A DNA stretch of 64,000 nucleotides from Escherichia phage HX01. This document shows positions 14,994-62,981 of the stretch, piece after piece (position 1 is the stretch's first letter; every line of letters starts with the position of its first letter). The position numbers were made by a program, and so were the translations under genes. The notes under the pieces were generated by a model that searched no databases, had not been told where the DNA came from, and was given only the letters and a program-made list of their open reading frames with translations. The stretch is from sequence record NC_018855.1; one strand, 5' to 3'.

Positions 14994-15000
14994 CAAAAAT

Positions 15001-15018
15001 GGGAGACCGAAGTCTCCC
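15001..15018 (-). terminator. hairpin terminator/attenuator between genes 35 and 36
   Basis: On minus strand GGGAGAC-UUCG-GUCUCCC followed by AUUUUU; gene 36 late promoter immediately downstream. Confidence 0.6.
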
Positions 15019-15023
15019 TAAAT

Positions 15024-23330: not shown

Positions 23331-23352
23331 GGGAGACTTCGGTCTCCCTTTT
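23331..23352 (+). terminator. rho-independent terminator after gene 32
   Basis: GGGAGAC-TTCG-GTCTCCC followed by TTTTG. Confidence 0.8.
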
Positions 23353-38098: not shown

Positions 38099-38278
38099 AT
38101 GGCAAAACAAGCTAAAGCAAAGAAAGCAGTTGAAAAGAAAGTTGATGGTACCTCTAAACGCGCTGGATACAAGCGTGGGTCGAACTCTCGTATTAATCAA
38201 ACAGTTGAGAAGATCATGCGCAGAGCACGTGCAGTTCTTCGAGATGATGCTTCTCGTTTTGGAAAGGTTGTTGCATAA
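38099..38278 (+). CDS. small lysine/arginine-rich basic protein (59 aa), not in ORF track
   Basis: ATG at 38099; product MAKQAKAKKAVEKKVDGTSKRAGYKRGSNSR...; stop 5 nt before a perfect UUCG terminator hairpin. Confidence 0.45.
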   Translation: MAKQAKAKKAVEKKVDGTSKRAGYKRGSNSRINQTVEKIMRRARAVLRDDASRFGKVVA

Positions 38279-38283
38279 TTTTA

Positions 38284-38305
38284 GGGAGACTTCGGTCTCC
38301 CTTTT
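38284..38305 (+). terminator. rho-independent terminator after 59-aa basic ORF
   Basis: GGGAGAC-TTCG-GTCTCCC followed by TTTTG. Confidence 0.8.
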
Positions 38306-58102: not shown

Positions 58103-58309
58103 ATGAGATTGATTATGAGAACTGAAGTTGAAGTTTATACATTACATGAGGCGGGATTTTCATTCGTAGAAATTGCTCAAAAAATCGGTTTACAACCTAA
58201 AGAAGTTGGATTACTATGGACTAAAGCCGAGACAGCTCGGTCAAAGTTTAAAGCAAAAGAAAAAGTTGTATACCGTAAACGTTTGATTAACAAAAAGGTG
58301 AAGAAATGA
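58103..58309 (+). CDS. small putative helix-turn-helix DNA-binding protein (68 aa)
   Basis: Segment EVYTLHEAGFSFVEIAQKIGLQPKEV resembles a sigma70 region-4 / LuxR-type HTH; basic C-terminus. Confidence 0.45.
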   Translation: MRLIMRTEVEVYTLHEAGFSFVEIAQKIGLQPKEVGLLWTKAETARSKFKAKEKVVYRKRLINKKVKK

Positions 58310-59676: not shown

Positions 59677-59708
59677 AAAAAAGGGACCGCAAGGTCCCTT
59701 TTTTTTTA
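59677..59708. terminator. bidirectional terminator between rnlB (+) and gene 24 (-)
   Basis: AAAAA GGGACC gcaa GGTCCC TTTTTTTTT. Confidence 0.8.
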
Positions 59709-60989
59709 TTCATCAATGATAATTTTTGGTAGTTTAACACCGAGTAAAACAGACAAGTCTGAACGTCCTGCCATTTTATCCATGTCCCCGCCATCAATTA
59801 TTCTCGCTTCTTTTTCATCTTTTGCTACTGTGTAAGGATTTGCTGATAAAGCATATCTAACCAATAATCCGATAGACGGTTGCAAGCTTTCTGGATCAAC
59901 TACAACTTTAAATGCACCAACATGTTCTGGGTCATCTAAATCTACTCCTTCAGTGTATGGAGCATAAAAGATGGACCCTACAATTTCTTTTTCGCCTATA
60001 TTTTCTACAACACCCACAATAACATAATCTAATGGGCTGTTGGTATCGCAGTAAAGAGGTAATCCATTTGCCAAGAATCCATAAGCATTTTGTGAAAGAT
60101 ACTTGTCATCTTCTGGCTTATGTTTTAACCAACCGGAAGCAGCAAGAATAGCAGCTGCACGAGCTGAGGCTACACAAAACGTTGCAGTATAAGTTGTCTC
60201 TTTTTGAATGTGTGATACCATTTCACACACCATTCGATATAATGAACGACCTGCTTCTGGAGCGGATGCATAGCTCAAGTCAATAAATCCAGTGTCAGTA
60301 ATTCCAGTAACTTTATAACGTTTCGATACAGTAATTAAAGACTGAAGAATATCTTTATTAATTTCATCTGCCATTTCAGTAGCAAGCAAATCTTCTAAGA
60401 AGTTAGGGGCATCAAATCCATTCGCTTCCAAATCTTGCGCTAATTCGACCGTGAGGCCAGTTTTAAGTTTACGTGATTTGACTGAAGTTTGCCATTTATT
60501 AATCTGGAATCTTGCATCAGAAATTTCGCTATCGGAGCTTTCAAATTTGCTTGTTACCGCTGCATCTGAAAATAACCGTACCTTTAAATGAACGACTGCA
60601 ATCTGAAGAGCTAGTTCTAGATCACTTTCTTGAATATCTGCAAATGGTGTATCTTCTAACACTTTATAGACGATATTATTATATTTGAAAAAATCACCTT
60701 TATTTAGTGTGACTTTTGATTCTTCTGTTAGCTCAGTAATTTTTTCTCGGTCTACATATCCAACTTCACCCGCATAAGTAGCGCCAGTTTTAAATGTGAA
60801 TTCGTTATCTGGGTTAAGATATTTGATACCATAAAAAGCAGCAACAGGTTGATTAGTTCTTTGTGTTGCTACAATGTCAGAATATATTAATTTAGTCGTA
60901 GCGCGAGTCAAAGCAACGAGATTTGGGCGACCAATTGAGTTGCTAGTAGACGTTGTAGATTCACGCAATAATTTTTGGATTTTACTCAT
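59706..60989 (-). CDS. 24: capsid vertex protein gp24
   Basis: 427 aa, same as T4 gp24; late promoter upstream. Confidence 0.9.
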   Translation of the reverse strand: MSKIQKLLRESTTSTSNSIGRPNLVALTRATTKLIYSDIVATQRTNQPVAAFYGIKYLNPDNEFTFKTGATYAGEVGYVDREKITELTEESKVTLNKGDFFKYNNIVYKVLEDTPFADIQESDLELALQIAVVHLKVRLFSDAAVTSKFESSDSEISDARFQINKWQTSVKSRKLKTGLTVELAQDLEANGFDAPNFLEDLLATEMADEINKDILQSLITVSKRYKVTGITDTGFIDLSYASAPEAGRSLYRMVCEMVSHIQKETTYTATFCVASARAAAILAASGWLKHKPEDDKYLSQNAYGFLANGLPLYCDTNSPLDYVIVGVVENIGEKEIVGSIFYAPYTEGVDLDDPEHVGAFKVVVDPESLQPSIGLLVRYALSANPYTVAKDEKEARIIDGGDMDKMAGRSDLSVLLGVKLPKIIIDE

Positions 60990-61016
60990 TGCATTTTTTC
61001 CTTATGTGATATAGAT

Positions 61017-61024
61017 TATTTATA
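61017..61024 (-). promoter_or_regulatory. late promoter (TATAAATA) for gene 24
   Basis: Reverse complement of TATTTATA about 28 nt upstream of gene 24 start. Confidence 0.65.
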
Positions 61025-61030
61025 AAGATT

Positions 61031-61062
61031 GTTTACAACGTATTTGGTATGTGATACTATAG
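61031..61062 (+). promoter_or_regulatory. early promoter driving ORF 61091..61360
   Basis: GTTTAC at 61031; GTATGTGATACTATAGAC; divergent from gene 24 late promoter. Confidence 0.55.
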
Positions 61063-61090
61063 ACTTATCAACTACAGAGGAGTAAACAAA

Positions 61091-61360
61091 ATGACTAAAG
61101 CACGTTTCTTACGAGATACTTTAAAAGTTCTAGAAGCTGAAGCAGTTAAGTTAGTAGAAAAATATGGTGCAAAAGTTAATGGTAATGCCTTCAACAAAGT
61201 ATGGATGAAAGTTGATTCTGAAGCTCGAGCTAAAGGTTATTGGGCCACTGATAAACTTGCATCATTCAAAAACAAAGACGGTTCTCTAGCATATGTCCAA
61301 GAAGGTATGCCTAATTGGCAAAATATTTTGAAAACTTACATCGAAATTGCACAGAAATAA
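61091..61360 (+). CDS. hypothetical early-type protein (89 aa) inserted between capsid genes 24 and 23
   Basis: ORF on the opposite strand to flanking late genes, with its own GTTTAC early promoter and GAGGAGTAAA RBS. Confidence 0.55.
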   Translation: MTKARFLRDTLKVLEAEAVKLVEKYGAKVNGNAFNKVWMKVDSEARAKGYWATDKLASFKNKDGSLAYVQEGMPNWQNILKTYIEIAQK

Positions 61361-61370
61361 AACCAAAAAT

Positions 61371-61388
61371 GGGAGACCGAAGTCTCCC
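61371..61388 (-). terminator. rho-independent terminator after gene 23
   Basis: On minus strand GGGAGAC-UUCG-GUCUCCC followed by AUUUUUGG. Confidence 0.75.
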
Positions 61389-61412
61389 AAAATAAGATTT
61401 AATCAATTAAGA

Positions 61413-62981
61413 TTAGATGCCTTTTACATATACACGGCGGAAGTAAGCGTTCTTACCAAGGCTGTTCAGGATAGACGGCATACCGGACTGGATGCGAGCA
61501 CCTGGAGCCTGCAGGGAACTTTCAGCAAACGGGTTAACACCGATACCGTAACGAGTTTTAAAGCCCATTACCGGCTGGAAGTTCTTAGGATCGGAACCAC
61601 GCAGTGGGGTAAGTGCAACGTAAGGAGCATAGTAAATACCTGCATCCATTTCGTTAGCGCCTTTGTAACCAACGGTGAAGTAATCCTGTTTAGCATACTG
61701 GTCGATGTATACGCGGTATTTACCACCAAGTACACCGGCAAATACGGACTTAGTAGTGTCGGTATTAAAACCAGAAGCCAGACCCTGTGCAGCATAAGAA
61801 ATACCAGTATCAACTGAAGCCAGTACGTTAACTACGTTACGGGAAGCGATAATGAAGTTACCTTCACCACGACCGGTTTGACGAGCAATTTCAACTGCTT
61901 CTTTATCAATCTGGAACAACAGAGATTTAAAGCTTTCACCGGCCCAACGAGCACCACGGATATCAATCGGGTCCTGGAAGTCAAATACACCAGCTTTAGA
62001 ACCCGGAGTCAGGGTCATACCAGATTTACCAACCTGTGCTGAGTAGTTAATCCAATCAACAACTTCACGGTTGATTTCTAGCATAATTTCTGTAGCCAGA
62101 ATACCGCTCAGTTCAGCATCAGCATCCATACCGTGTACTGCACGGAGGTCTTGTGCTAATTCGATAGAGTAAGCAGCTTTCAGCTGGCGAGATTTAGCTT
62201 CAATAACTTGTTTATCGATACGGAAGCCCATTTCATTCCATGGGTTATCGGTAGAACCGTTGAAACCTTCCTGGAGTTCAGCGATAGAAGTAGCCATACC
62301 TTCAGCGATTTCTACCAGTGCACCAGCTTCCATTTGTTTCTTAACTTCTGCATCTAATTTAGCTGCATCAGTTGCACCAGAATCAAGTGTTACGATAGCA
62401 GAAGCTTGCAGATATACAGTACCAGTTTCTTGGAAGAAGTGAGTATAGATATCACCTACAACAGTAGTAGTGTCAGCAGCCAGAGCTGGGAATTTCTTAG
62501 CAGCACCCTGACCAGAGAACATCGCGTCTGGGGCATACATCGGATGGAAAGCTTCTTTAGCGCCAGCAGCGATAGGGTCTTTACCATATACTGCACGGAG
62601 AGCAAATACCTGACCGGTCGGGCTGTTCATAGGCTGAACACCACAAATATCAAAAGCGATCAGATTAGGAATAGCACGACGAACCATACCCATAACTGCC
62701 GGCCCAATTTGGGTTACTGCACCAGAGGTTTGACCTGCTGCGATGTTCTGAGCATTATAACCATGGTCACCACCAATTTCAGCTTCGGTCAAGAAAGAAC
62801 CAAATGCCTGAGCGATTTTCTCGTCTTTATATTCAGGGGATACTTCGAAATCTTTTTCCTGGTTTTCGAAGATTTTAGCGATAATAGCCTGCTTGCTATT
62901 AGCGATTTCCGGCAGGCCTTCACCTTCCAGCAGTTCTTTCCATTTGTCTACGAGCTGAGCTTTAGTTTTGATAGTAGTCAT
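61413..62981 (-). CDS. 23: major capsid protein gp23
   Basis: 522 aa (T4 gp23 521 aa); terminator hairpin after stop; synteny 22-23-24. Confidence 0.95.
   Translation of the reverse strand: MTTIKTKAQLVDKWKELLEGEGLPEIANSKQAIIAKIFENQEKDFEVSPEYKDEKIAQAFGSFLTEAEIGGDHGYNAQNIAAGQTSGAVTQIGPAVMGMVRRAIPNLIAFDICGVQPMNSPTGQVFALRAVYGKDPIAAGAKEAFHPMYAPDAMFSGQGAAKKFPALAADTTTVVGDIYTHFFQETGTVYLQASAIVTLDSGATDAAKLDAEVKKQMEAGALVEIAEGMATSIAELQEGFNGSTDNPWNEMGFRIDKQVIEAKSRQLKAAYSIELAQDLRAVHGMDADAELSGILATEIMLEINREVVDWINYSAQVGKSGMTLTPGSKAGVFDFQDPIDIRGARWAGESFKSLLFQIDKEAVEIARQTGRGEGNFIIASRNVVNVLASVDTGISYAAQGLASGFNTDTTKSVFAGVLGGKYRVYIDQYAKQDYFTVGYKGANEMDAGIYYAPYVALTPLRGSDPKNFQPVMGFKTRYGIGVNPFAESSLQAPGARIQSGMPSILNSLGKNAYFRRVYVKGI

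Follow-up and report, generated by a model that had tools for sequence, protein, structure and literature searches.

ORF89, a small early-type gene between capsid genes 23 and 24 of RB69-like phages

The gene 23–24 interval and its transcription signals

The window analyzed here, a stretch of 64,000 nucleotides, comes from a Mosigvirus (an RB69-like T-even phage), and its local sequence is 100% identical to that of Escherichia phage JS09. The 423 bases between the two capsid genes (60990–61412) are 100% identical also to DCP548 and PNJ-6, and are found at 95% identity or above in about 140 Mosigvirus records. The plus strand carries hoc, 24.3, 24.2 and rnlB; these are followed by gene 24 on the minus strand, an 89-codon open reading frame (ORF89) on the plus strand, and genes 23 and 22, again on the minus strand. 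Gene 24 is assigned as the head vertex protein from the annotation of SA79RD, a 99%-identical phage in which gene 23 is annotated as well. T4 gp24 is 95% identical to the window protein, and the two gp23 proteins are 94.6% identical. The initial annotation described ORF89 as a plus-strand frame between two minus-strand capsid genes, equipped with its own GTTTAC early promoter and a strong ribosome-binding site, and bracketed by the gene 24 late promoter and the gene 23 terminator. Every one of these features is present, with coordinates that are exact or differ by at most 2 nt (Table 1).

Table 1. Features of the gene 23–24 interval and its flanks, in window coordinates
Feature	Position	Strand	Details
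Gene 24 (capsid vertex protein), left flank	59706..60989	-	427-aa ORF
Gene 24 late promoter TATAAATA	61017..61024	-	reads TATTTATA on the plus strand
Predicted T4-type early (sigma-70) promoter	61031..61060	+	GTTTAC (61031–36), 18 nt, TG (-15/-14)-n-TACTAT (61055–60)
Shine-Dalgarno sequence GAGGAG	61077..61082	+	8 nt upstream of the ORF89 ATG
ORF89, 89 aa	61091..61360	+	ATG 61091, TAA 61358–61360; family phrog_6003
Gene 23 intrinsic terminator	61354..61389	-	stem GGGAGAC/GUCUCCC (hairpin 61370–61389), UUCG loop, U-tract over the ORF89 stop codon
Gene 23 (major capsid protein), right flank	61413..62981	-	522-aa ORF

The predicted promoter of ORF89 agrees with the T4-type early class in its -35 element, its gap, its -10 element, the TG, its position on the early strand, and the presence of an ORF downstream. 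The pattern GTTTAC-N17-19-TANNAT has 14 matches in the window where 0.95 are expected, an enrichment of 14-fold or more, and all 14 lie on the plus strand. With a generic sigma-70 scan the region is not enriched (5 found, 8.9 expected). Because the GTTTAC pattern is enriched and confined to one strand, we regard 61031–61060 as belonging to a genuine, strand-specific promoter class. The ORF89 transcript would start near 61067. The early promoter is kept in the JS98 locus and in loci L012 and L013, with near-matches in VR7, P8 and L011, and a GGAG is retained upstream of the ORF in all related loci.

The gene 24 late promoter, which is also annotated in SA79RD, stands back-to-back with the early promoter, with 6 bp separating it from the early -35 element. 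All seven related loci have it at an unchanged offset, and in all of them the ORF is flanked by the complete set of signals, with the late promoter, early promoter and Shine-Dalgarno sequence on one side and the gene 23 terminator on the other. On the plus strand the interval contains no consensus late promoter; the only late-like sequence, TATAAAGA, is not conserved.

The hairpin at the other end of the interval is GC-rich and stable (-15 to -18 kcal/mol, z about -4.5). Its UUCG loop and U-tract are found only on the minus strand (UUUUUGGUUUU); on the plus strand, the stem is followed by AAAAUAAG. We therefore attribute this hairpin to gene 23 and not to ORF89. Since the plus strand has no U-tract, early transcription of ORF89 probably continues past the hairpin and enters gene 23 in antisense from its 3' end. 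Between rnlB and gene 24, which are convergent, lies a symmetric A6-stem-T6 hairpin (59677–59704) that looks like a true bidirectional terminator, unlike the one-directional hairpin after ORF89. No RNA element in the 23–24 interval was matched in Rfam.

The terminator module GGGAGAC-UUCG-GUCUCCC occurs at four sites in the window (14994–15023, 23331–23348, 38284–38301 and 61370–61389), each time oriented so that the transcript to be terminated carries the UUCG loop. Both plus-strand copies have a GTTTAC early promoter no more than about 50 bp downstream. Just upstream of one such terminator and early-promoter pair lies a plus-strand ORF of 59 aa (38099–38278) with a pI of 11.4 and a net charge of +12.5.

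The cassette is thus real and was correctly described by the initial annotation, but it had already been catalogued. The GenBank record of SA79RD annotates the same promoters and terminators. For the same locus in RB69, the supplements of Nolan et al. 2006 (PMC1524935) list an early promoter (Pe:109605), a late promoter (Pl:109573) and a terminator ('23-><-RB69ORF188c'). Of the 57 early promoters predicted for RB69 in that study, 13 stand in front of novel ORFs.

The ORF89 protein and its family

The product of ORF89, identical to JS09_0270, has a mass of 10.2 kDa, a pI of 9.6 and a net charge of +5.5. Its residues 1–89 align to positions 1–90 of the 90-position phrog_6003 profile (E 7.2e-45), and it shares the characteristics of that family: a length of 83–93 aa, a conserved N-G-N-x-x-N motif that opens helix 2, and an invariant Gln that closes strand 2. 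ORF89 is a plain member of phrog_6003, together with RB69ORF188c/189c, JS98 orf173 and VR7ORF190c, with the same slot, strand and regulatory layout. The AlphaFold2 model, computed from only 20 sequences, has a pLDDT of 93.8 and a pTM of 0.79. The predicted fold is a three-helix bundle (residues 3–25, 31–48 and 76–88) with a beta-hairpin (strands 52–60 and 66–70) inserted between helices 2 and 3. When a BFVD model computed independently for a 30%-identical member is superposed on it, the TM is 0.87. Across the 20-sequence alignment M1, K3, F6, G31, N32, N35 and Q70 are invariant, and no His, Asp, Glu or Cys is conserved.

Among unsaturated pairs, dN/dS is 0.19 for VR7 versus P8 and 0.04 for L006 versus ABPH49. 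These low ratios, the confident structure model, and the retention of the ORF in its slot at 30–38% identity suggest that ORF89 is more than a chance reading frame. Judged by these comparisons and the model, it is a genuine protein-coding gene under purifying selection. This conclusion bears on whether the selected element could instead be the early promoter, making antisense ('anti-late') RNA across gene 23, with the ORF incidental. Read-through into gene 23 is to be expected from the missing U-tract after the plus-strand hairpin, and the rnlB/gene 24 pair, in contrast, has a symmetric bidirectional terminator. Yet it is the protein that is under purifying selection and that is predicted to fold confidently; furthermore, the family is present in genomes where no gene 23 lies downstream, and most T-even genera have no promoter in the slot at all. 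We consider an antisense function of this kind very improbable.

Sequence and profile searches and structure prediction connect ORF89 to no characterized protein, in line with the initial annotation, which recognized no motif in it. In Pfam, ORF89 matches only DUF4859, below threshold, and none of 20 family members carries a Pfam domain. Sequence searches with ORF89 against NCBIfam, PADLOC and the PDB returned nothing meaningful, and Foldseek found no relative of the predicted fold in the PDB. Database records of phrog_6003 members are all labeled 'hypothetical', with no function given, and neither ORF89 nor phrog_6003 is named in any paper found by literature search. No paralogue was found in the window or in 15 kb of T4. 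The small size of the protein (89 aa), the lack of conserved His, Asp, Glu or Cys and the basic charge suggest that it acts by binding and not by catalysis.

The charge of the protein is conserved. Net charge lies between +4 and +7.5 in 11 of the 12 members compared, including those of 30% identity; in the window, only a minority of the small ORFs encode basic proteins, and most encode acidic ones. We asked whether this small basic protein, instead of inhibiting a host protein, might bind nucleic acids, for instance to regulate early or late expression through contacts with DNA or RNA. The conserved charge, unusual among its neighbors, would suit such a role, as would the helical bundle with a beta-hairpin 'wing', for which Foldseek returned very weak winged-helix hints (ORC2, Cdt1, MarR; probability <0.1). 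These hints have TM values of 0.2–0.3 and E >0.8, however, and neither Pfam nor the PDB yielded a helix-turn-helix or any other DNA-binding match. A core regulator is impossible, because the gene is broken in several viable phages. Nucleic-acid binding is therefore, in our estimate, an unlikely function, although one that deserves some weight.

The same charge separates ORF89 from the DNA-mimic anti-restriction proteins (Ocr, ArdA, Arn). Like ORF89, these proteins are small, early and without enzymatic motifs, but they are strongly acidic. Because ORF89 is basic (pI 9.6, net +5.5), a DNA-mimic mechanism is excluded; nor does it match their fold.

Occupancy of the 23–24 slot and distribution of the family

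Comparison of the 23–24 interval across T4-related phages shows that it varies among relatives and is not identical in all of them; neither does its ORF correspond to a known structural factor. In six lineages (Tequatrovirus RB7, Karam-, Gelderland-, Jiaoda- and Winklervirus, and Acinetobacter phage Acj9) the slot is empty, with 81–109 bp that hold only the terminator and TATAAATA. Elsewhere it is occupied by other genes: segD on the opposite strand in T4, a homing endonuclease on the same strand in RB16, a Hef-like homing endonuclease on the opposite strand in Yersinia phage JC221, and two tiny ORFs in Krischvirus KFS-EC. Mosig-, Dhaka- and Gaprivervirus and their relatives carry the ORF89 cassette. 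Its homologues in the same slot and on the same strand (30–38% identity) are orf173 of Dhakavirus JS98, ORF190c of Gaprivervirus VR7, and ORFs of Yersinia phage P8 and three uncultured relatives. The limits of the cassette are exact, running from the U-tract of the gene 23 terminator, which overlaps the ORF89 stop codon, to the gene 24 late promoter. The homing endonucleases occupy this same site, and those of T4 and JC221 lie, as ORF89 does, on the opposite strand. They differ from ORF89 in size (roughly 210–510 aa versus 89 aa), and ORF89 contains no GIY-YIG, HNH or any other nuclease domain. These comparisons indicate that the 23–24 intergenic slot is a recurrent insertion site in T4-related phages.

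The type of ORF in the slot does not always follow its flanks. Contig L011, from an uncultured T-even phage (ENA ERZ27245996 k123_278436, 173 kb), encodes gp23 and gp24 that are 92% and 94% identical to those of JS98, and its flanks are JS98-like down to the gp24 duplication. Its ORF, however, is 60% identical to ORF89 of the window and only 29% to the JS98 protein. A JS98-like flank combined with a Mosigvirus-type ORF implies that the cassette has been exchanged independently of its flanks. T4, too, lacks the ORF in spite of capsid proteins that are 95% identical to gp23 and gp24 of the window. From these sequence comparisons we conclude that ORF89 is exchanged, gained or lost independently of the neighboring capsid genes.

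The picture of an early-type cassette inserted on the opposite strand, as originally proposed, is supported by the empty slots of six lineages, by the different mobile genes found elsewhere, and by the mismatch between ORF and flanks. A recent or window-specific insertion, by contrast, is contradicted by the layout common to Mosig-, Dhaka- and Gaprivervirus and uncultured relatives. The composition of ORF89 matches its genome (GC 0.344 versus 0.379 for the window; GC3 0.22 versus 0.23 for gene 24), and its acquisition is not recent. Its presence in three genera and their uncultured relatives indicates that the insertion is old. The description of the cassette as 'moron-like' holds in part. Like the morons of temperate phages, which are units of promoter, gene and terminator, ORF89 is inserted between adjacent genes, has its own promoter and is predicted to be transcribed independently. 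In contrast to a moron it has neither a terminator of its own nor a composition different from that of the genome, and the term thus applies only loosely. A further difference from morons is that the phage carrying ORF89 is virulent and forms no lysogen from which the gene could be expressed. The cassette also stands apart from most of the small 'novel ORFs' of the T4 early type, which are found mainly in early-gene clusters; ORF89 is isolated between late capsid genes.

The family is small, with 26 clusters at 90% identity among 5.8 billion proteins; an exhaustive phmmer search of 1.84 billion representatives gave only eight matches, and a scan of IMG/VR found nine T-even loci, on contigs of about 155–172 kb. 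The hosts of the named records are nearly all Escherichia, Shigella and Yersinia, with one labeled Acinetobacter. Two giant bacterial repeat proteins, P0009 and P0011 (2191 and 1347 aa; E 1e-11 and 7e-6), were rejected as chance matches, in which 5–10 matches to cadherin/Big-like repeats are summed.

Outside the T-even phages, the family has a second context in Vequintavirinae-like (rV5-like) phages, represented by three metagenomic contigs and by a record that bears the name Acinetobacter phage ABPH49. Here the homologues lie inside long arrays of small ORFs on the same strand, with a T7 gp0.6-like gene among the neighbors, and no capsid genes are nearby. None of the neighbors in these arrays has a known function from which that of ORF89 could be deduced by association. 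The array context supports an early accessory role and disfavors a role in the capsid.

The place of the gene between two capsid genes raises the question whether it could act in head assembly, as a chaperone, an internal protein or a regulator of gp23/gp24. Its position is constant in three genera, and the phrog_8765 profile ('internal virion protein') matches ORF89 below threshold (E 0.022). Several observations argue against such a function. ORF89 lies on the opposite strand behind an early promoter, and the late-like sequence on its own strand is unconserved. It is absent from T4 and RB7, although both phages have gp23 and gp24 at 95% identity to the window proteins. Its rV5-like homologues are found in small-ORF arrays far from capsid genes. 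T4 internal proteins are expressed late and have a capsid-targeting N-terminus with a conserved L/I-x-E protease site. The N-terminus of ORF89, MTKARFLRDT, is unlike the T4 targeting sequence, and its only L-x-E (L21-V22-E23) is not conserved in VR7-type members. A role in head assembly is, in our view, scarcely credible.

Broken copies of the gene are found in several phages. In RB69 (AY303349; L004 2437–2677), a +1 and a -1 frameshift split the ORF into ORF189c and ORF188c, and substitutions are clustered around the first frameshift; these frameshifts might reflect a real pseudogene or errors of the 2003 sequence. The ORF is cut to 51 aa in mogra-type phages and to 64 aa in 310Ecol104PP, and P0013 is a frameshifted allele. 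The broken copies suggest that ORF89 is dispensable, at least in some hosts, and repeated pseudogenization could mean that the gene is of little benefit.

These alleles are relevant to the possibility that ORF89 is selfish or neutral cargo of a recombination hot spot, which persists because it disrupts the target site of a homing endonuclease or hitch-hikes with capsid-gene exchange, and which brings little direct benefit. Apart from the frequency of broken copies, this possibility could account for the three different homing endonuclease genes in the slots of T4, RB16 and JC221 and for ORF types at odds with their flanks. It is harder to reconcile with the strong purifying selection on intact copies (dN/dS 0.04–0.19), with a fold and charge that are conserved over deep divergence, and with homologues kept in unrelated rV5-like phages away from the capsid slot. 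Nor does ORF89 contain a nuclease domain, and it was rejected as a SegD remnant (hhalign against T4 SegD, probability 1.4%). We judge the cargo explanation to be quite unlikely.

A possible role in early infection

The ORF89 unit is best explained, from its signals and distribution, as a putative monocistronic early accessory gene cassette in the 23–24 slot. As to what the protein does, we tentatively propose, as a plausible reading that falls somewhat short of an even chance, that it is an immediate-early protein, dispensable under some conditions, which serves takeover or counter-defence by binding to an acidic partner in the enterobacterial host. Unmodified host RNA polymerase would transcribe ORF89 during the first minutes after infection. 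As the unit lacks its own terminator, the transcript would extend in antisense into gene 23 from the 3' end of that gene, until it is stopped by Rho or by RNA decay. Expression would cease once early promoters are silenced and convergent late transcription has begun. The small, non-enzymatic protein would act stoichiometrically on a partner specific to Enterobacteriaceae, for which a component of a defence system, a housekeeping protein and a nucleic acid are candidates; the isolation hosts of the named phages would fit such a restriction. The basic charge would agree just as readily with a nucleic-acid-binding function. Binding of this partner would aid takeover or counter-defence, and the gene would be needed only under some conditions. 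The host-takeover or anti-defence role suggested by the initial annotation is a prior expectation only, as no sequence, profile or fold links ORF89 to a characterized protein.

A more specific version of this proposal is possible but rather unlikely. The ORF89 family might be an early inhibitor with a new fold that acts on an immune system or an essential host machine of the Enterobacteriaceae, and T-even genera would trade it among themselves as a cassette at the homing-endonuclease hot spot between the capsid genes. The two allelic types, Mosig and Dhaka (about 30% identical), would in that case be the outcome of an arms race in which the host targets differ.

For a specialist ORF89 is no surprise; it is one more annotated hypothetical early ORF and a reasonable candidate for screening. 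The one early-protein screen found for a Mosigvirus, a study from 2026 that covered 45 proteins of phage AV110, chose its candidates by homology to T4 early proteins, and for this reason ORF89 is missing from it. Should ORF89 prove to act in counter-defence or takeover, the repertoire of such factors would gain a new fold, and there would be an explanation for the differing host ranges of therapeutic Mosig-, Dhaka- and Gapriverviruses, which include many candidates for phage therapy or biocontrol. The natural broken alleles (RB69, mogra-type phages, 310Ecol104PP) offer ready comparisons with phages in which the gene is intact. The locus is also of modest general interest for the movement of accessory genes in T4-like phages, with the 23–24 spacer as a landing site and the type of cassette uncoupled from the capsid genes.

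Other differences between these phages concern gene 24 and its left-hand neighbors. Gene 24 and rnlB abut directly in the window; in Karam-, Jiaoda- and Winklervirus, a DprA-like gene lies between them. Such a gene is located directly downstream of gene 24, on the opposite strand, at L016, L018, L019 and L029 (Karam-, Jiaoda-, Winkler- and Krischvirus). Six loci (L002, L003, L009, L011, L013 and L017) contain a tandem duplication of gene 24 (24a/24b, copies about 55% identical). The carriers are Dhaka-, Gapriver- and Gelderlandvirus and uncultured relatives; the window and T4 have a single gene 24. Finally, a match to the early-promoter pattern (GTTTAC..TACTAT) at 58188–58217 lies inside the coding sequence of gene 24.3 (58103–58309) and could drive 24.2 and rnlB.
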